Shown: piece by piece, positions 3,268 to 47,592 of the stretch
Numbering within the stretch: position 1 is the first letter of the stretch
How the letters are laid out: each line of letters opens with the position of its first letter
From: Bacteroidales bacterium Bact_11
GTDB taxonomy: Bacteria > Bacteroidota > Bacteroidia > Bacteroidales > UBA932
Length of the DNA: 64,000 bases
Direction: 5' to 3'
Assembly: GCA_001603505.1 (NCBI GenBank)
Contig: LUZC01000012.1
Coordinates: forward strand, 10,725-74,724
Notes under the pieces: model-generated
Databases searched by the model: none
What the model was told of the DNA's origin: nothing
The model's input: only the letters and a program-made list of their open reading frames with translations
Made by a program: the position numbers and the translations under genes

Positions 3268-4602
3268 ATGGATCCCCTGCAGGCCATTTCCCCCGTCGAC
3301 GGCCGCTATGCGTCGAAGACGTCCGAACTTTCGGCTTTCTTCTCCGAATACGCCCTGATGCGCTACCGCGTGCTGGTGGAAGTGGAGTATTTCATCGCTC
3401 TGTGCGAACTCCCGCTGCCGCAGCTCCGCGATATCGACCCCGACGTCTTCCCCGCCCTGCGCGCCCTCTACGGCGACTTCCAGGTGGAAGACGCCGCCCG
3501 GATCAAAGAGATCGAGCGCCGCACCAACCATGATGTCAAGGCCGTGGAGTATTTCCTGAAGGAACGCTTCGCGCAGCTCGGCATCGAACGCTTCGGCGAA
3601 TTCATCCACTTCGGGCTCACCTCGCAGGATATCAACAACACGGCTACGCCGCTCTCGCTCAAGGAAGCGATCGCAGAGGTGTATCTTCCCGCCCTGCGCG
3701 AACTGTTGGGCATGCTCTCCGAACGCGCCGCCCTGTGGGCCGACGTGCCGATGCTCGCCCATACCCACGGGCAGCCCGCTTCCCCCACCCGCCTAGGCAA
3801 GGAGCTGGAGGTGTTCGTGGTCCGGCTCAAGGAGCAGATCCGCCAGCTGGAAGCCCGCCCCTATCCCGGCAAATTCGGCGGTGCAACGGGCAACCTCAAC
3901 GCCCACGCGGTAGCCTATCCCGACATCGACTGGAACGGCTTTGCAGAAAGTTTCGTTGCCTCGCTGGGCCTGAAACGATCCTGGCCCACCACCCAGATCG
4001 ACCACTACGACAACCTGTCGGCTATCTTCGACGCGCTGCGCCGCATCAATACGGTGCTTGTGGACCTGAGCCGCGACTGTTGGATGTATATCTCCATGGA
4101 GTACTTCGGCCAGACGGTCGTGGACGGCGAAGTGGGTTCTTCCACGATGCCCCACAAGATCAATCCCATCGACTTCGAGAACGCAGAAGGCAACCTTACC
4201 TACGCGAATGCCATCTACAACTACCTCTCGGAGAAGTTGCCGGTTTCGCGCCTGCAGCGCGACCTCACCGACTCCACGGTATCGCGCAACATCGGTGTGC
4301 CCATCGCCCATTCGCTGATAGCCATCCGGTCGCTGGAAAAAGGCATCGGCAAGCTCATCCTCAACGAAGAGAAAGTGGCGGGCGACCTCGAGGCCAACTG
4401 GGCCGTCGTCGCCGAAGGCATCCAGACCATCCTGCGCCGGGAGGGATTCCCCAAGCCGTACGAGGCGCTCAAGGCGCTCACGCGCACCGGACACCATATT
4501 ACCAAGGAAGCCATCTGGCATTTCATCGAAGACCTCGACGTGTCCGAATCGGTCAAGGCCGAGCTCCACGCCATCACGCCGAACACTTACACAGGCATTT
4601 AG
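3268..4602 (+). CDS. purB: Adenylosuccinate lyase
   Basis: 444 aa. Fumarate-lyase family signature SSTMPHKINP. N-terminus ISPVDGRYASKT is typical of PurB. Confidence 0.95.
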   Translation: MDPLQAISPVDGRYASKTSELSAFFSEYALMRYRVLVEVEYFIALCELPLPQLRDIDPDVFPALRALYGDFQVEDAARIKEIERRTNHDVKAVEYFLKERFAQLGIERFGEFIHFGLTSQDINNTATPLSLKEAIAEVYLPALRELLGMLSERAALWADVPMLAHTHGQPASPTRLGKELEVFVVRLKEQIRQLEARPYPGKFGGATGNLNAHAVAYPDIDWNGFAESFVASLGLKRSWPTTQIDHYDNLSAIFDALRRINTVLVDLSRDCWMYISMEYFGQTVVDGEVGSSTMPHKINPIDFENAEGNLTYANAIYNYLSEKLPVSRLQRDLTDSTVSRNIGVPIAHSLIAIRSLEKGIGKLILNEEKVAGDLEANWAVVAEGIQTILRREGFPKPYEALKALTRTGHHITKEAIWHFIEDLDVSESVKAELHAITPNTYTGI

Positions 4603-4681: not shown

Positions 4682-5248
4682 ATGAAACGATTTGTTCTTG
4701 TACTCACTGTCCTGGGCATGGCCTTATCGGCAAATGCCCAGCGCTGGACGATATGGTATGGTGTCAACCTTTCCAATGAAATGAAGAACGGAGCCCTCAA
4801 GGAGTGGCATTTCGCCAATGGCGGCGTGGACTATACAATCCCCGTCTCGCACTTGGATTTCACCATCGGCGCCGGACTGAATACGACCGGCGGCCGGCGG
4901 CGGATCAATTATGCGCAATTGGAGAGCAATGCGGGGTACCGTTTCGTTGACTCACCGAAAGGCTTGAAATTATCCGCCATCGCCGGGCCTTATCTGGGAA
5001 TCAAGGTGGCCGACGACCGAAATGATTATGCGCCCTTACCCCCCGCCGTCAAGCCTGTTACCTGCGGATGGCAGGCGGGCGTGGTGATGCGGTTCAGGCC
5101 CATCTCGCTGAAGGTCGGTTATGAGCAGGCACTCGTGGGATATTACGATGCTTCTGTCTCGTCACAATACTATAAGGCAGACGGACAACCGGCCTACCCG
5201 ACCACAAGGCCCCACTCCCTCTTCATCCGTCTCGGATTTACTTTTTAG
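4682..5248 (+). CDS. Small outer-membrane beta-barrel protein (porin-family/OmpW-like), function unknown
   Basis: Signal peptide MKRFVLVLTVLGMALSANAQ. Alternating hydrophobic pattern. C-terminal ...IRLGFTF ends in Phe, as in OM beta-barrels. Confidence 0.65.
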   Translation: MKRFVLVLTVLGMALSANAQRWTIWYGVNLSNEMKNGALKEWHFANGGVDYTIPVSHLDFTIGAGLNTTGGRRRINYAQLESNAGYRFVDSPKGLKLSAIAGPYLGIKVADDRNDYAPLPPAVKPVTCGWQAGVVMRFRPISLKVGYEQALVGYYDASVSSQYYKADGQPAYPTTRPHSLFIRLGFTF

Positions 5249-5270: not shown

Positions 5271-5354
5271 AAAAGGAAAAGGCGACTCGCTGCAGTGCGG
5301 GTCGCCTTATCCTTTAACCTAAAACTTAACCTATGAAAAAACTATTCGTTCGAT
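5271..5354 (-). ncRNA. Candidate ~84-nt sigma-54-dependent small RNA (copy A)
   Basis: Predicted start is about 12 nt downstream of the -12 GC. Ends at the hairpin 5281-5306 plus a U-rich tail (minus strand TTTTCCTTTT). No ORF. The core is duplicated at 10565-10644. Confidence 0.35.
5281..5306. terminator. Bidirectional intrinsic terminator hairpin between convergent genes (OM protein + / PPIase -)
   Basis: GGCGACTCGC-TGCAGT-GCGGGTCGCC. The stem is 10 bp (one G-U) on the + strand and 6+3 bp with a C-A mismatch on the - strand. An A-rich tract lies on one side and a T-rich tract on the other. Confidence 0.7.
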
Positions 5355-5365
5355 TTATAGGTTAA

Positions 5366-5380
5366 GCAAAGCGCGTGCCA
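5366..5380 (-). promoter_or_regulatory. Sigma-54 (-24/-12) type promoter motif TGGCACG-CGCT-TTGC
   Basis: The minus strand reads TTTGGCACGCGCTTTGCTT: TGGCAC at 5380-5375, a 5-nt spacer, TTGC at 5369-5366. It matches the TGGCACG-N4-TTGCW consensus. rpoN is encoded in the window. Confidence 0.5.
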
Positions 5381-5387
5381 AAGTTTT

Positions 5388-6074
5388 TTAATTCGCCGGA
5401 GTAATCGAAATAATCTGCACCTTGTTGACCGGGCGGTCGCGCGGATCGGTTTTTTCAGCCGCGATCTTGTCGATTACCGAGAGACCGTCCACCACTTCTC
5501 CGAAGATGGTGTATTCGCCGTCGAGGTGGGCGCAGTTGTCGGGATCGTGGACGATGTAGAACTGGGAGCCGGACGATTCCTTGGCCGGATTCACCATATC
5601 GCCGCGACGGGCGGCAGCCAGCGCGCCTTTCTTGTGGGTCAGGCCGGGCACGATCTCCGCCGGAATGGTATAACCCGGTCCTCCGGTGCCAAACTGGGCT
5701 ATCTTGGTAGAATCCTTGGTGAACGGATCGCCGCCCTGGATCATGAAACCTTTGATGATCCGGTGGAACAGCAGGCCGTTGTAGAAGCCGGACTTCGCCA
5801 GTTTGACGAAATTGTCGCGGTGAAGCGGCGTTTCCGAATAGAGTTTGACGGTCATGGTTCCGTCGGTGGTCTTGATGGTCAACTTCGGCTCTTCGCCGAG
5901 AGCGGCCCACTTGTCGGCGGGCACAGCAGGTGCTTCGTTCATAGTTGTTAGTTCTTGAGTCTCTTCGATGGCCTCGTCGGGATTGGCATCAAGTCCCGGT
6001 TTCGAGTCGTTACCCTTGCCGCAACCGGCCATAAGGACAGCCGCCGCAAGGAAGTAAATGCATATCCGTTTCAT
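5388..6074 (-). CDS. Peptidyl-prolyl cis-trans isomerase, cyclophilin type, lipoprotein
   Basis: Lipobox ...VLMAGC. Cyclophilin motifs FHRIIKGFMIQGGDP and GTGGPGYTIPAE. Confidence 0.9.
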   Translation of the reverse strand: MKRICIYFLAAAVLMAGCGKGNDSKPGLDANPDEAIEETQELTTMNEAPAVPADKWAALGEEPKLTIKTTDGTMTVKLYSETPLHRDNFVKLAKSGFYNGLLFHRIIKGFMIQGGDPFTKDSTKIAQFGTGGPGYTIPAEIVPGLTHKKGALAAARRGDMVNPAKESSGSQFYIVHDPDNCAHLDGEYTIFGEVVDGLSVIDKIAAEKTDPRDRPVNKVQIISITPAN

Positions 6075-10069: not shown

Positions 10070-10528
10070 ATGAAGGTGCTGAAATCCTGGGGCTCGGCCG
10101 GTGAGGTCGTTTTGGGCCTCGATGCCGAAGACACCCGGGATTTGAAGATCCAGGAGCCGGTATTCATCGATTTCGATGAACTGCCGGTTCCTTTTTTTAT
10201 GGAATCCATCCAGACCAAAGGTAACCGTTTCATCGTCAAGTTTGAGGATGTCGATACGCTCGAGGCGGCAGAGGAACTTGTTGGCCGCATGGTGCGTATG
10301 TCCGAAACGGAGGAAGAGGAGGACGAGGGCATCGTCGGCATGCAGGTCCGCGATGCAAAGAGCCGCCGAATCATCGGGACCGTCGTCGATTTCAGCGATT
10401 ATGGCGGAAACACGCTCATCACGGTGGAAACCGCCCGCGGGGAAGTGATGCTGCCCCTCCACGAAGACCTCATCGTCAGCATCCACAACGATGTAATCAC
10501 CCTCGACATTCCGGAGGGTTTACTCTAA
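10070..10528 (+). CDS. rimM: 16S rRNA processing protein RimM
   Basis: Directly follows rpsP, the conserved order. 152 aa with a RimM-like N-terminal barrel (GEVVLGLD...) and a C-terminal PRC-like segment (MLPLHEDLIVSI). Confidence 0.8.
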   Translation: MKVLKSWGSAGEVVLGLDAEDTRDLKIQEPVFIDFDELPVPFFMESIQTKGNRFIVKFEDVDTLEAAEELVGRMVRMSETEEEEDEGIVGMQVRDAKSRRIIGTVVDFSDYGGNTLITVETARGEVMLPLHEDLIVSIHNDVITLDIPEGLL

Positions 10529-10538
10529 GAAACGAGTT

Positions 10539-10553
10539 TGGCACACGCTTTGC
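10539..10553 (+). promoter_or_regulatory. Sigma-54 (-24/-12) type promoter motif TGGCACA-CGCT-TTGC
   Basis: TGGCAC at 10539-10544, a 5-nt spacer, TTGC at 10550-10553. Same motif as copy A with one substitution. Confidence 0.5.
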
Positions 10554-10564
10554 TTAACCTAGAT

Positions 10565-10644
10565 TCGAATAGTTTTTTCATAGGTTAAGTTTTAGGTTAA
10601 AGGATAAGGCGACCCGTTCTGAAACGAGTCGCCTTTTTCCTTTT
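10565..10644 (+). ncRNA. Candidate ~80-nt sigma-54-dependent small RNA (copy B)
   Basis: Predicted start is about 12 nt after the -12 GC. Tandem TAGGTTAA motif, terminator hairpin at 10608-10633, then TTTTTCCTTTT. No ORF. Confidence 0.35.
10608..10633. terminator. Bidirectional intrinsic terminator hairpin between rimM (+) and the phosphohexomutase gene (-)
   Basis: GGCGACCCGT-TCTGAA-ACGAGTCGCC flanked by T-rich and A-rich tracts. Relative to copy A, the loop-closing pair is changed from C-G to T-A (compensatory). Confidence 0.7.
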
Positions 10645-10646
10645 AG

Positions 10647-10667
10647 ATGCCCGGCGGAGCCGGGCAT
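10647..10667 (-). terminator. Additional hairpin directly after the phosphohexomutase stop
   Basis: ATGCCCGG-CGGAG-CCGGGCAT: 8-bp perfect stem. No U-tract of its own. Confidence 0.35.
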
Positions 10668-21180: not shown

Positions 21181-21634
21181 CCTTCTGACCCTCCTGGCGG
21201 TGCTCCTCTTTTCCGTCACCGCCTCGGCGCAAGCCACTGTAGACAGCACGCTGTTGGGCGTTGATATCCTGTCGCTCATCGGCCAGAAAGGTGCAGGTTC
21301 GGCATCCGTCAACCAGTCATACGAAATCCGCACCGCGCTTTCCCGCCACATCTCGGCCAACAGCCACGCCAAGATGCAGGGCTACCGCGTCCGCATCTTT
21401 TTCGACAGCGACCGCACCGCCCGTGCCCAATCGGAAGCCATCGCCCGTAATTTTTCGGAAAAATATCCCGAAGTTCCCGTATACCGTAGCCACGTCAGCC
21501 CGTATTTCAAGGTAACGGTGGGCGATTTCCGCACCCGGGCCGACGCCCAGCGCTTCGCCAGCCGGCTCACCGGCAGCGGCGCGTACAAATATGTCTTCGT
21601 GGTCAAGGAACAAATCAACTACCCCAGTTTCTGA
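21167..21634 (+). CDS. SPOR-domain (peptidoglycan-binding) protein
   Basis: Signal MKKNSLLTLLAVLLFSVTASAQ. C-terminal SPOR-like YRVRIFFDSDRTARAQSEA...FKVTVGDFRTRADAQRFASRL. The ORF-track start at 21017 lies inside the previous gene. Confidence 0.8.
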   Translation: MKKNSLLTLLAVLLFSVTASAQATVDSTLLGVDILSLIGQKGAGSASVNQSYEIRTALSRHISANSHAKMQGYRVRIFFDSDRTARAQSEAIARNFSEKYPEVPVYRSHVSPYFKVTVGDFRTRADAQRFASRLTGSGAYKYVFVVKEQINYPSF

Positions 21635-21635
21635 G

Positions 21636-23042
21636 ATGCTGAAGCAAACACAACAACTCAAGCAGACGCAGAGGCTCTCTCCGCTCCAGATCCAGACCAT
21701 CAAACTGATCGAGCTGCCGGCCCCTGAACTGGAGCAGCGCATCCAGAAGGAGCTGGAAGAGAATCCTGTGCTTGAGGAAGTCGTGGACGATTCGCCGGAA
21801 GGGGAAGAAAAGAAAAACATCTCGCTGAGCGAGTATGGCAGCAGCGACCCGACCCCGTCGTACAAGCTCTATGTCAACAACCAGGGCAAGGACCTCAAGC
21901 CGCAATACAACACCTTCTCCGTGCAGGAGAGTTTCCACCAGAGCCTCGAGGCCCAGCTCGGCTACTGCAAGCTCGATGAACGCCAACGGCAGATCGCCCT
22001 GTTCATCATCGGCATGATCGACGACGACGGCTACCTGCGGCGCGACCTCGAATCGCTCGCCGACGACATCTCGTTCCGGCTCGGCATCGAGACGACCGAG
22101 GAGGAAGTGGAACAGCTGCTGAAACTCATCCAGGAGTTCGACCCGGTGGGCGTGGGCGCACGCGACCTGCGCGAGTGCCTGCTTCTCCAGCTGGCCGCCA
22201 AGAAACAGACGCCTTCAGTCCAACTGGCCACACGGATCCTGCGCGACCATTTCACCGAATTCACCAAAAAGCACTACAGCAAGATCACCGCGCGGCTGAA
22301 CATCACGGAAGACCAGCTCAAGGAAGCCATCGCCGAGATCGTGCGGCTCAATCCCCGTCCCGGCGGACAGATCGACGATTCCTATACCGAGCAGGTACAG
22401 CAGGTAGTCCCCGACTTCCTGGTGGAACTCAAGGATGGAGAACCCGTCATGTCGATGCCCCGCTTCTCCGTGCCTGAACTGAAAGTCAACAAACGTTACG
22501 CCGACGTCCTGATGGAAGCGGCCAACAGCGCCACCCGGGAAAAGAAAGAGGCAGCCAGCTTCGTCAAGCAGAAACTCGACTCGGCCAAATGGTTCATCGA
22601 AGCCATCAAGCAGCGTCACAACACGTTGCAGAACACGATGAACGCCATCATCGACTACCAGCACGATTTCTTCATCGACGGCGACGAGACCAGGCTCAAA
22701 CCGATGGTCCTGCGCAACATCGCCGAAAAGACCGGTCTGGACATCTCCACCATCTCGCGTGTGGTCAACTGCAAATACGTGCAGACACACTTCGGTATCT
22801 ATCCGCTCAAATATTTCTTCTCGGAAGGACTCGTAGCACATGACGGCGAAGAGGTATCCACCCGTGAGATCAAGACCATCCTGACCAACAGCATCGCCGA
22901 GGAAGACAAGCGCAAGCCTTTGACCGACGAGGAACTTGTGGCCGTCCTCAGCGAAAAGGGATACAAAGTGGCGCGCCGTACCGTGGCCAAGTACCGCGAA
23001 CAGCTCAACATCCCCATTGCGCGGCTCCGGAAAGAACTCTAA
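21636..23042 (+). CDS. rpoN: RNA polymerase sigma-54 factor
   Basis: N-terminal Gln/Leu-rich region I (MLKQTQQLKQTQRLSPLQIQ). C-terminal RpoN box ARRTVAKYRE. Confidence 0.95.
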   Translation: MLKQTQQLKQTQRLSPLQIQTIKLIELPAPELEQRIQKELEENPVLEEVVDDSPEGEEKKNISLSEYGSSDPTPSYKLYVNNQGKDLKPQYNTFSVQESFHQSLEAQLGYCKLDERQRQIALFIIGMIDDDGYLRRDLESLADDISFRLGIETTEEEVEQLLKLIQEFDPVGVGARDLRECLLLQLAAKKQTPSVQLATRILRDHFTEFTKKHYSKITARLNITEDQLKEAIAEIVRLNPRPGGQIDDSYTEQVQQVVPDFLVELKDGEPVMSMPRFSVPELKVNKRYADVLMEAANSATREKKEAASFVKQKLDSAKWFIEAIKQRHNTLQNTMNAIIDYQHDFFIDGDETRLKPMVLRNIAEKTGLDISTISRVVNCKYVQTHFGIYPLKYFFSEGLVAHDGEEVSTREIKTILTNSIAEEDKRKPLTDEELVAVLSEKGYKVARRTVAKYREQLNIPIARLRKEL

Positions 23043-23054
23043 TATCCGATCGAT

Positions 23055-23462
23055 ATGACCAAGATGAAAACCATTTACCTGGGCGATCTGCGGTGCGAAG
23101 CCGAACACCTCGACTCAGGCGACAAGATCCAGACGGTCGCGCCCAAGGACAACAACGGCGACGGCAGCCGTTTCTCCCCGACCGACCTGTTCGCCACTTC
23201 CCTCGGCTGCTGCATGCTAACCATCATCGGCATGGCCGCACGGACGCACGGCTTCTCCATCGACGGGACAACCATCACCACCGAGAAGGTGATGGCGGCC
23301 AACCCGCGCCGCGTGGCGGAACTCCGGCTGGAGGTCAAGCTTCCCGAAGGCAGCCACTACTCCGACAAGGAGAAGCGGCTCATCGAGAACGCAGCCAAGA
23401 CCTGCCCGGTGGCGAACAGCCTCCACCCGGATATCAAGAAAATCGTCGAGTTTATCTGGTAA
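23055..23462 (+). CDS. OsmC/Ohr-family protein
   Basis: 135 aa. Two-Cys pattern (SLGCCMLT ... AKTCPVANSL) typical of the OsmC family. Confidence 0.82.
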   Translation: MTKMKTIYLGDLRCEAEHLDSGDKIQTVAPKDNNGDGSRFSPTDLFATSLGCCMLTIIGMAARTHGFSIDGTTITTEKVMAANPRRVAELRLEVKLPEGSHYSDKEKRLIENAAKTCPVANSLHPDIKKIVEFIW

Positions 23463-28005: not shown

Positions 28006-28011
28006 TAATTT

Positions 28012-28019
28012 GTATATTT
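28012..28019 (+). promoter_or_regulatory. -7 promoter box TAtaTTTG (M48 peptidase gene)
   Basis: TATATTTG lies 21 nt upstream of the ATG at 28041. Confidence 0.4.
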
Positions 28020-28040
28020 GAAGGAAATTTAACCTTTGCT

Positions 28041-28823
28041 ATGAAAAGACTGATACCCGCCCTCGTCTGCGCAATGCTGCTGCTGCCGGGTTGCGGCGTG
28101 CTCCTCAACGGACTTTCCAACATGGATGCCGCCGGCATGGCCACGGCCGCCAGCACGGCCATGACCGCCCTTTCCATCACCGACGAACAGATCGCCCAGC
28201 TCAGCGCCGAGTCGGTCGCCTACATGGACTCGGTCAACAAGGTCGACAAAGGCAGCTACGACGCCCGCCTCCGCCGGCTCATGTCGAACATCAAGAGCAT
28301 CGATGGCGTGCCCATCAACCTGAAAGTCTACCGCACCAACGAAGTCAATGCCTTCGCCTGCGGCGACGGCTCCATCCGCGTGTATTCCGGCCTGATGGAC
28401 GTGATGGACGACGCGGAACTGATGGCCGTGATCGGACACGAGATCGGCCACGTGGTGAACAAGGACACCAAGACCGCCATGAAGAAAACCTATATGGCTT
28501 ACGCGGCAAGGCAGGCGCTCGGCTCAACCGGCACCCTGATCGGGAACCTTTCCACCAGCGTCCTGGGCGACATCGCGCAGTCGTATCTCAATGCACAATA
28601 TTCCCAGAAGCAGGAATTCGCCGCCGACGAACACGGATTTGCCTTTTCCATCAACCAGGGATACAGCCCCTACAGCATGTACAATTCCCTGGTCAAGCTC
28701 ATGAAGCTCAACAGCAATTCCAGTTCGAAGGCGTCCGGCGTCCAGCAAGCCTTCTCCTCACACCCTGCCACGGAAGAGCGTGCAGCCCGCATGAAAGCGG
28801 CTGCCGACGCCTACAGCAAATAG
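28041..28823 (+). CDS. M48-family metallopeptidase, lipoprotein
   Basis: Lipobox LLLPGC and HEIGHV zincin motif. 260 aa. Confidence 0.85.
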   Translation: MKRLIPALVCAMLLLPGCGVLLNGLSNMDAAGMATAASTAMTALSITDEQIAQLSAESVAYMDSVNKVDKGSYDARLRRLMSNIKSIDGVPINLKVYRTNEVNAFACGDGSIRVYSGLMDVMDDAELMAVIGHEIGHVVNKDTKTAMKKTYMAYAARQALGSTGTLIGNLSTSVLGDIAQSYLNAQYSQKQEFAADEHGFAFSINQGYSPYSMYNSLVKLMKLNSNSSSKASGVQQAFSSHPATEERAARMKAAADAYSK

Positions 28824-46813: not shown

Positions 46814-46938
46814 TTTTTTTCGCTGCAACGGACGCAACTGATAATCAGTCGGTTGCACAAACACATCCCCCTCGTTTTGTCGGGGAGCAGTTTTCGTAAA
46901 CACTTGACTGACTGTTGCGTCCGTTGCAGCGAAAAAAA
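46814..46938. repeat. 125-bp palindromic element with perfect 25-nt arms
   Basis: TTTTTTTCGCTGCAACGGACGCAAC (46814-46838) is the exact reverse complement of 46914-46938. The spacer is 75 nt. Confidence 0.9.
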
Positions 46939-46941
46939 GCG

Positions 46942-46949
46942 TAAATTTG
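46942..46949 (+). promoter_or_regulatory. -7 promoter box TAaaTTTG (nitroreductase gene)
   Basis: TAAATTTG ends 4 nt before the ATG at 46954. Confidence 0.5.
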
Positions 46950-46953
46950 TCTT

Positions 46954-47592
46954 ATGAAAAGAATTATCTTCGCTTGGACGCTGGCGGCGCTGATGCTGAT
47001 GGCCGCGGCGTGCGGGAGCCAGGAAGCGCAGCCCGCGAGAAAAAGTGCGCTCGAAGTCATCAAGGCCCGAACCAGCATCCGCAGCTTCACGGGTGAAAAG
47101 CTCACCGAAGAGCAGATCAACACGCTGCTCGATGCTGCCATGGCAGCCCCGACGGCCGTCAATATCCAGCCCTGGCGCTTCATCGTCATCACCGACGAAG
47201 CGACCAAGTCGGGTCTCTATCAAGGAGAGCAACACAAACACATGGTCGAAACAGCCGGGGCCGTGATTATCGTTTGTGGCGAAACGACCCGGATGGTCCG
47301 TCCCCACGGGGCGGACGAAGACGCCGAGCTGGTTCCCTCACCGAACAAATACTGGTTTGAAGACTGTTCCGCAGCTACGGAGAATCTGCTGCTCGCTGCA
47401 ACTGCCCTAGACCTGGGCGCGGTCTGGCTCTCCTGCTATCCGAGCGAGCGGATTGTCGACCGAATCAAAGCGTATCTCGGCATTCCCGAAACTGTAACTC
47501 CGCTTGCCATCGTCCCGGTCGGCTATCCCGCAGAGCAACCCGAACCCAAAGACAAATGGAAACCCGAGAACATCCACTACGATAGGTGGTAG
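46954..47592 (+). CDS. Nitroreductase-family flavoprotein with a lipoprotein-type signal peptide
   Basis: ARTSIRSFTGEKL...AAPTAVNIQPWRFIV is typical of the nitroreductase fold. The N-terminus MKRIIFAWTLAALMLMAAAC looks like a lipobox signal. Confidence 0.83.
   Translation: MKRIIFAWTLAALMLMAAACGSQEAQPARKSALEVIKARTSIRSFTGEKLTEEQINTLLDAAMAAPTAVNIQPWRFIVITDEATKSGLYQGEQHKHMVETAGAVIIVCGETTRMVRPHGADEDAELVPSPNKYWFEDCSAATENLLLAATALDLGAVWLSCYPSERIVDRIKAYLGIPETVTPLAIVPVGYPAEQPEPKDKWKPENIHYDRW

Follow-up and report, generated by a model that had tools for sequence, protein, structure and literature searches.

A candidate sigma-54-driven small RNA gene related to FopS behind a cyclophilin gene in a Bacteroidales genome

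Sigma-54 promoters drive several small RNAs (sRNAs) of Proteobacteria, among them Qrr1-5 under LuxO, GlmY and GlmZ under GlrR, CrcZ under CbrB and NrsZ under NtrC, and the pairing of a -24/-12 promoter with an ATP-dependent activator makes sRNA expression switch-like and signal-dependent. Other sRNAs of E. coli and Salmonella that depend on alternative sigma factors, MicL, MicA and RybB, repress outer-membrane or lipoprotein synthesis at the start codon. Here we describe a candidate sRNA gene, copy A, that occupies positions 5271-5383 of the minus strand in a 64,000-nucleotide stretch (the window) of contig LUZC01000012.1 of Bacteroidales bacterium Bact_11 (GCA_001603505.1), directly behind the gene for a cyclophilin-type peptidyl-prolyl isomerase (PPIase). 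Comparison with its relatives leads us to read copy A, with a probability of about 0.68, as a complete, independently transcribed and trans-acting sRNA gene of ~80 nt that would be driven by sigma-54 and would belong to a multicopy family related to FopS.

Among post-transcriptional regulators of polysaccharide-utilisation loci in gut Bacteroides, the FopS RNAs were the first to be characterised well. B. thetaiotaomicron has 14 paralogues of ~65-70 nt, each an unstructured 5' seed followed by a terminator, which bind RbpB, a protein with an RNA recognition motif (RRM), and repress SusC-like transporters at the level of translation by base-pairing beside the start codon (Ruttiger, Ryan et al. 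2025, PMC11697453). The family is reported from the Bacteroidaceae only, as conserved there, and is transcribed from canonical sigma-ABfr promoters, with one member, FopS-14, derived from a 3' untranslated region (3' UTR) (PMC11697453). Like FopS, the copy A family consists of short RNAs (~75-85 nt here) with UUUUUCAU and AGGUUAA in the 5' seed and only a terminator after it; both come as multicopy paralogues in intergenic and 3' UTR positions, and in both the seed is complementary to the start-codon regions of SusC-like genes. Unlike FopS, the copy A family is found in other, mostly uncultured Bacteroidales behind a sigma-54-type promoter, and it carries a second AGGUUAA and a ~8-nt 5' leader before the U-run. 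FopS-like architecture and function are known already, and what would be new here is the sigma-54 drive and the occurrence outside the Bacteroidaceae.

With the Proteobacterial sigma-54 sRNAs copy A shares the position of the sRNA gene directly behind a -24/-12 promoter motif and the presence of several paralogues, as is often the case there (Qrr). Those RNAs have mapped upstream activator sites, whereas no such site is detectable here and the phylum lacks Hfq; the Rfam models of Qrr, GlmY/GlmZ and CrcZ give no match at E up to 10, and sequence and structure are unrelated. The arrangement also resembles that of type I 3'-UTR sRNAs such as the sigma-E-dependent MicL, in which the promoter lies at the end of a co-directional gene and the terminator is common to sRNA and mRNA. 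Unlike MicL, MicA and RybB, copy A would depend on another class of sigma factor and has no homology to them, and a link to envelope stress is here hypothetical.

A sigma-54-type motif and its conservation

Copy A carries TGGCACG-CGCT-TTGC at 5380-5366(-). These bases fit the core consensus of sigma-54 exactly, with the GG(-24) and GC(-12) elements just one helical turn apart. An earlier, sequence-only reading of the window had proposed a sigma-54-dependent sRNA gene on the strength of these boxes, pointing out the G after TGGCAC as a closer fit than in copy B, a paralogue in the same window. The bases are as described, and every coordinate given there, including those of the hairpin at 5281-5306 with its U-tract and of the predicted start at 5354, proved correct (Table 1). 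The +1 position is placed by the general geometry of sigma-54 promoters. By itself the motif is not significant in one window, since its degenerate form with 1 mismatch is expected 1.64 times per window; an exact TGGCAC-N5-TTGC is expected ~0.12 times per 64 kb (a uniform-composition estimate). The argument has therefore to be made by comparing genomes.

Table 1. Positions of copy A, its parts and associated features in the window.
Feature	Position	Strand	Remarks
PPIase open reading frame (ORF)	5388-6074	(-)	stop TAA at 5390-5388; homologues carry PF00160
-24 box TGGCAC, then G	5380-5375; G at 5374	(-)	begins 7 nt past PPIase stop
Spacer CGCT	5373-5370	(-)	
-12 box TTGC	5369-5366	(-)	(T)TTGC from 5370
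5' arm CTTAACCTAT of 10-bp hairpin	5357-5366	(-)	pairs with 5334-5325 (ATAGGTTAAG); RNAfold
Predicted +1	5354	(-)	12 nt downstream of C(-12) at 5366
Seed region GUUUUUUCAUAGGUUAAGUUUUAGGUUAA	5314-5342	(-)	anti-start-codon UUUUUUCAU at 5341-5333 (six T, then CAT) plus two AGGUUAA
AGGTTAA repeats	5332-5326 and 5320-5314	(-)	
Terminator stem-loop, GC-rich, GGCGACCCGC/ACTGCA/GCGAGTCGCC	5306-5281	(-)	one C.A mismatch
U-tract TTTTCCTTTT	5280-5271	(-)	directly 3' of terminator hairpin
Convergent gene, 188 aa	4682-5248	(+)	signal-peptide-like N-terminus; no Pfam match
Copy B	10537-10645	(+)	89% identical to copy A over 114 nt
Copy B, putative promoter	10539-10553	(+)	
Copy B, predicted start	~10565	(+)	
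Copy B, terminator	10608-10633	(+)	followed by U-tract
rpoN (sigma-54)	21591-23042	(+)	RpoN box ARRTVAKYR; Pfam Sigma54_AID, Sigma54_CBD, Sigma54_DBD, E 1e-12 to 4e-58

PPIase homologues 75-94% identical to that of the window were traced to their contigs, and the element is present wherever the locus extends beyond the stop codon (7 loci). Loss of the motif at orthologous loci had been named as an observation that would speak against a promoter; instead, the motif survives as TGGCAC-N4-TTTGC in 7 of 7. Neither TGGCAC nor TTTGC has changed, whereas the intervening four bases differ (GCGC, ACCC, GGCC, ACGC), the distance from the stop to the promoter motif ranges from 7 to 26 nt, and no sequence upstream of TTTGGCAC can be aligned. 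The RNA body CGAATAGTTTTTTCATAGGTTAAGTTTT(T)AGGTTAAAA is near-invariant at these loci, and changes in the terminator stem are compensatory.

The wider family was retrieved blind to the promoter, by searching one genome per GTDB species with a pattern restricted to the RNA body, TTTTCATNGGTTAA-N3-8-AGGTTAA. The search yielded at least 120 loci, with 124 anchored matches that retained full flanks after removal of duplicates. Among the matches listed, 91 of 124 have TGGCA(C/T)-N5-TTG at a fixed distance from the core; the offset is -36 for 48 copies, -35 for 25 and -37 for 10. This is a recurrence in independently retrieved relatives that is far beyond chance and that argues for the proposed sigma-54-driven sRNA gene. 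The strict form TGGCAC-N5-TTGC occurs at 71 sites in 948 kb of fetched loci against ~1.8 expected, and 68 of these directly precede an RNA core, 2 lie in truncated or degenerate copies and 1 is unrelated. In seven further matches (plus L018, TACTTTTG, scored 's54weak') a canonical TAnnTTTG box lies ~14 nt upstream of the U-run, and all of these come from termite-gut metagenome-assembled genomes (MAGs) labelled Prevotellaceae. About 23 matches, mostly outside the Bacteroidales, have neither promoter type. In these 'Prevotellaceae' copies (L014, L018, L034, L064, L085, L086, L094 and L117) the sigma-54 boxes are replaced by TAnnTTTG (-7) together with a -33-like CTTGG.

Information content in the TGGCAC-aligned copies is near zero from -86 to -32, rises abruptly at -28, falls to ~0-0.3 bit at -18/-17 and rises again from -16 to -11; the 3-4 bases between the boxes vary freely, and homology ends at -28. 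Comparison with the extended consensus YTGGCACG-N4-TTGCW at positions outside the search regular expression (96 copies) gives T at -28 in 90/96 and at -27 in 68/96, C at -21 in 94/96, a purine at -20 in all 96 (G 64, A 32), T at -16 in 88/96 and A or T at -11 in 95/96. In typical copies the conserved body (C/G)(G/A)ATAG starts at the predicted +2 (CGAATAG). Sigma-54 itself is encoded in the window (Table 1); the rpoN gene lies 11 kb from copy B and is followed by an OsmC-like gene (23055-23462).

The sigma-54-type and TAnnTTTG-type promoters both put the start ~8-15 nt upstream of the U-run, and the presence of a canonical box at the equivalent place in the 'Prevotellaceae' copies implies that the RNA is made from a dedicated promoter. 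Both promoter types have the pentamer TTTGC in common, which suggests an easy evolutionary route between the two classes. It could be supposed that copy A also has its own promoter but one read by housekeeping sigma-ABfr or by an extracytoplasmic function (ECF) sigma factor, or that its boxes form an operator, the likeness to sigma-54 being coincidental. TTTG is indeed the core of both Bacteroidota housekeeping promoter boxes, the FopS genes of B. thetaiotaomicron have canonical promoters and GibS lies behind the unassigned motif PM2, 30% of the copies lack C(-12), and TAGTTTTT just downstream resembles TAnnTTTG. We nevertheless regard this explanation as improbable. Copy A has no TAnnTTTG box of the kind found at FopS genes: there is no TA 4 nt upstream of TTTG, and the two TTTG lie 8 nt apart, not about 20. 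Taking TAGTTTTT as the -7 box would place the start inside or after UUUUUUCAU and so lose the seed that is transcribed in FopS and in the 'Prevotellaceae' copies, while invariance of TGGCAC at a single fixed spacing is a signature of sigma-54.

GibS (BTnc035) is listed with 'PM1' in Supplementary Data 2 and with the non-canonical PM2 in the main text of the same study (PMC7366714). PM2 is described as boxes at -10/-30, and it occurs at 29-35% of internal and antisense starts. The idea that PM2 is a sigma-54 motif in disguise was rejected as uninformative; the gibS flank oligonucleotide contains no TGGCAC.

A FopS-like seed and a variable terminator

At gathering thresholds, Rfam finds only a tRNA in the window. 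At permissive thresholds, RF04319 (FopS) is the only Rfam match to the element, full-length (model 1-71) and below the 56-bit cut-off throughout. Copy A scores 25.0 bits, with E = 0.093 when 351 nt are searched, and six copies from different lineages (L008, L010, L014, L018, L034, L044) score 28-35 bits. With 25-35 bits against a gathering threshold of 56 bits, the RNA is not a FopS member by the Rfam criterion. Even so, the RF04319 consensus alignment has UUUUUCAU, AGGUUAA, GAU and the terminator in common with copy A, and several features of FopS are present: a 5' seed with R1/R1' (UUUUUCAU...), a single Rho-independent terminator, and a multicopy state (two in the 64-kb window). GibS has the FopS R1 seed, and the core of the copy A seed is the same anti-start-codon sequence. 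The AGGUUAA repeats that the sequence-only reading had taken for the seed do belong to it but do not make up the whole, which is UUUUUUCAUAGGUUAA-N5-AGGUUAA, with the R1 core of FopS and GibS. Judged by sequence, the copy A family would be a distant relative of FopS, either a sister lineage or a divergent extension.

Conservation is distributed unevenly along the RNA. The 5' ~38 nt are nearly completely invariant across 84 aligned copies, a figure partly selected by the search pattern, and the 3' parts are so diverse that 96 copies have 94 different ones. In 88/96 copies the 3' part folds into a hairpin of 5 bp or more with a U-rich tail (median 12 pairs, median z = -5.3). Across 21 close relatives, both partners have changed in a compensatory way at 7 of the 10 terminator pairs, and one pair occurs as four pair types; copies A and B differ by one compensatory pair at the top of the stem (C-G to U-A). 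The internal mismatch hid the copy A hairpin from a simple terminator scanner; it is recovered by RNAfold and by covariation. This pattern also speaks to the notion of a dispersed repeat, selfish or structural, in which the element would be an intergenic terminator cassette that builds up between convergent genes and has no trans-acting function; we hold this to be very improbable. Such a repeat could account for the multiple copies, for the 52 of 83 that nearly fill convergent gaps with a hairpin able to terminate both genes, and for related modules on viral contigs. What is selected in the family is the unpaired 5' part, with ~30 nt invariant, and not the hairpin sequence, which differs in 94/96; this is the reverse of the pattern of a structural repeat, and the element is moreover homologous to an experimentally characterised family of regulatory sRNAs.

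The invariant UUUUUUCAUAGGUUAA-N5-AGGUUAA is the reverse complement of UUAACCUAUGAAAAAA, that is, of a start codon and Lys codons with UUAACCU before them. In keeping with this, the matches with neither promoter type are largely genuine gene starts read on the opposite strand. The seed is exactly complementary to the starts of three genes for SusC-like TonB-dependent receptors (L022, L048, L053), and the same group of matches includes starts of signal-peptide proteins in Flavobacteriia, Cytophagia and Bacteroidia (L012, L027, L031, L033, L043). The existence of such initiation regions and their perfect match to the seed fit the FopS mechanism. The gene starts carry TTAACCT-N(3-8)-TTAACCNATGAAAA, which by a rough estimate is commoner than chance and suggests a recurrent initiation-region motif in Bacteroidota.

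The predicted folds separate a read-through RNA from one that starts at the predicted +1. RNAs of read-through length have RNAfold z-scores of -5.1 (copy A) and -3.8 (copy B). Bases -12 to -3 (CTTAACCTAT) are complementary to the seed portion AUAGGUUAAG, and the resulting 10-bp hairpin dominates the fold of the read-through-length RNA; copy B has an equivalent hairpin (10553-10562 with 10579-10588, +). Since one arm of the hairpin consists of promoter bases (-12 to -3), read-through RNA can form it and a sigma-54 transcript cannot. This complementarity (TTAACCT) is restricted to the sub-lineage that resembles the window, with one G.U variant (L004), and does not define the family.

Upstream context, read-through and the proposed mechanism

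Both copies in the window lie behind a co-directional gene (PPIase for copy A, rimM for copy B) and face a convergent gene on the other side, as had been seen from the sequence, and the same context recurs in the family. Over the upstream 300 nt the longest ORF is co-directional in 71/83 loci and stops short of TGGCAC by a median of 14 nt (range 2-71). On the downstream side the gene is convergent in 60/83 loci, and since 52/83 copies lie between convergent genes, much of the co-directional bias is geometric. The expectation that enhancer sites would fall within coding sequence thus applies generally, and the coding sequence that would have to hold an enhancer is a different one at each copy, because the upstream regions are usually the ends of unrelated genes.

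Between the PPIase stop and copy A there is no other hairpin with a U-tract, as in type I 3'-UTR sRNAs. The sRNA terminator is therefore the sole terminator behind PPIase, and each PPIase transcript would carry the sRNA as its 3' UTR. The sequence-only reading had allowed that the RNA might in addition be released from this 3' UTR. A rival explanation is that the RNA comes only from the 3' end of the upstream mRNA by read-through and processing, as a type II 3'-UTR sRNA like FopS-14, and that the boxes act not as a promoter but as some RNA-level or other DNA-level signal, such as a site for processing or for binding of a protein. Copy A starts 7 nt past the stop of a gene with no other terminator, the median of 14 nt shows the same proximity in 71/83 loci, one FopS of B. 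thetaiotaomicron does arise in this way, and the search for activator sites was negative. Four observations make this source unlikely as the only one. The boxes fit sigma-54 at every consensus position, including those that were not searched for, with a free spacer. Among 83 motif-bearing copies, 12 have no co-directional upstream gene and so need a promoter of their own, and the bias in the others stems largely from the preference for convergent gaps (52/83). In the 'Prevotellaceae' relatives this spot is taken by a bona fide housekeeping promoter. Finally, homology ends at -28, behind genes that are unrelated to one another.

Several results weigh against a sigma-54-driven, trans-acting copy A. 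C(-12) is present in 67/96 copies and replaced by T, A or G in 29/96. The upstream DNA is unrelated coding sequence, usually the end of a co-directional gene; a search for shared k-mers or dyads from -250 to -4 in 60 non-redundant loci found no conserved upstream activator site, the only enriched motifs being accounted for by orthologous coding sequence. A scan for the GAFTGA loop found no enhancer-binding protein, either in the window or across 948 kb of related loci. In minimum free energy (MFE) folds the U-run of the seed is weakly paired with a downstream A-rich stretch, which leaves the seed partly free in silico (median P(unpaired) 0.65). RNAduplex on 58 gene starts of the window gave no significant enrichment of targets (p = 0.09), the 17-nt seed complement has no site with <=3 mismatches in the 64 kb, and the RF04319 scores remain below the cut-off in all copies. 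Because of the activator, upstream-site and C(-12) results, we rate the assignment of the boxes to sigma-54 as quite probable and no higher.

The sole upstream conservation seen across the family consists of weak A-rich peaks (0.2-0.5 bit), roughly phased at -31/-49/-60/-70, which could reflect intrinsic bending, a site like that of integration host factor (IHF) or just AT-rich gene ends. The best pairings in the window found by eye are with the starts of two lipoprotein genes at 28041(+) and 46954(+), in 28006-28065(+) UUUAACCUUUGCUAUGAAAAGACU and 46919-46978(+) UAUGAAAAGAAU; they are statistically indistinguishable from background. No RRM protein is encoded in the 64-kb window.

In the mechanism we propose, sigma-54 RNA polymerase would bind the -24/-12 promoter at 5380-5366 and an ATP-dependent activator would open it, so that transcription would start near 5354 and would end at the hairpin and U-tract (5306-5271), whose structure is evident and whose function is predicted. 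The 5' part of the RNA, AGUUUUUUCAUAGGUUAAGUUUUAGGUUAA, would pair where translation is initiated, at sites of the form UUAACCUAUGAAAAAA such as are typical of TonB-dependent transporters of the SusC-like kind and of other signal-peptide proteins. By analogy with FopS-10, and given the exact complementarity to SusC-like starts, this pairing would occlude the start codon and repress translation. In the PPIase read-through RNA, bases -12 to -3 would instead pair with the first AGGUUAAG and sequester part of the seed. With the seed masked in this way, the sigma-54 transcript is probably the active form.

Under this mechanism, sigma-54 with its activator would be a concrete transcriptional input for a FopS-like sRNA, and FopS or a sister family would extend to many uncultured Bacteroidales of ruminant, bird and mouse guts. 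The family would also be a natural case of one sRNA swapped between two mechanistically different promoter classes, and it raises the question of how a sigma-54 promoter operates behind unrelated upstream coding sequence. In the searchable literature we found no report of a sigma-54-dependent sRNA in Bacteroidota, nor any work that mapped transcriptomes or sRNAs in Alistipes or related genera. Sigma-54 regulons were surveyed in 2025 for protein-coding genes alone, and that survey linked Bacteroidota sigma-54 in silico to chaperones and proteases (PMC12316311), and this link is the basis of a more speculative proposal that we consider doubtful: that promoter, sRNA and bidirectional terminator form a compact, enhancer-less cassette which colonises convergent gaps, responds to an activator that needs no nearby DNA site, and serves as the RNA arm of a sigma-54 stress regulon of Bacteroidota. 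If so, the activator would work from solution or from inside the element and switch on copies genome-wide, and the regulon would shut down the synthesis of SusC-like outer-membrane proteins, a counterpart of the enterobacterial sigma-E system with MicA, RybB and MicL. Copy A would then belong to the first sigma-54-controlled sRNAs in Bacteroidota, and Bacteroides and the termite-gut 'Prevotellaceae' would have brought this RNA under the housekeeping sigma factor by reuse of the shared TTTGC core.

Paralogues, carriers and neighbouring features

BLAST and a profile hidden Markov model find exactly one further copy in the window. Copy B has TGGCACA-CGCT-TTGC at 10539-10553(+) as its promoter motif, starts 8 nt past the stop of rimM (RimM 10070-10528, Pfam-confirmed) and faces a convergent phosphoglucomutase-like gene. 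Between its -12 box and the conserved RNA body it is 5 nt shorter than copy A. The extra 5 nt shift the promoter-to-body offset of copy A to -41, found in copy A alone among the 91 motif-bearing matches listed; copy A, described from the sequence as closer to the consensus than copy B, is thus the atypical copy in its spacing. The insertion (5349-5357, -) resembles a TCGAA/CGAA duplication and would lengthen the 5' leader of the predicted RNA by 5 nt.

Among the matches listed, more than 90 distinct copies were retrieved from uncultured Bacteroidales genomes. The carriers are MAGs labelled Alistipes, Rikenellaceae, Candidatus Coprenecus, Egerieisoma, Egerieousia, Muribaculaceae and, in many cases, 'Bacteroidales bacterium', the last from ruminant, bird and mouse guts; closest to the window among these matches is a goat-omasum MAG, RGIG2727 (L125), in which both paralogues are present. 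Several MAGs have 3-4 distinct paralogues each, which sort into recognisable orthologous subtypes, with at least 4 in BRZ_AL__bin64 (two in L028, one each in L075 and L112) and at least 3 in BRZ_BR__bin117. Degenerate extra copies occur near intact ones in L079 (-, 6759), L036 (+, ~2290-2330) and L057 (-, ~3560-3600), and suggest local duplication followed by decay; the one in L079 has TGGCAC-N5-TTGC followed by TTTTTTGATAGGTTAAGTTTAGGTAAAA.

Six IMG/VR viral contigs (L129, L130, L132, L134, L135, L136) carry the sRNA core and terminator with no TGGCAC or sigma-54 boxes, and these modules echo a published FopS sequence in a Bacteroides phage. BLAST of the element against GenBank phages gave no match.

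On the other side of copy A, the terminator probably also serves the convergent gene that ends at 5248. The 188-aa product of this gene ends in Phe and has the look of an outer-membrane beta-barrel protein, with Pfam blank. A small protein encoded on the strand opposite copy A (MKKLF...) was considered and excluded, because the antisense mini-ORFs (10 and 18 codons) are not conserved in length. At copy B, a second GC-rich hairpin, CCCGGCGGAGCCGGG, occupies ~10648-10664(+), past the copy B terminator and short of 10673, where the phosphoglucomutase-like gene stops; it may be that gene's own terminator.

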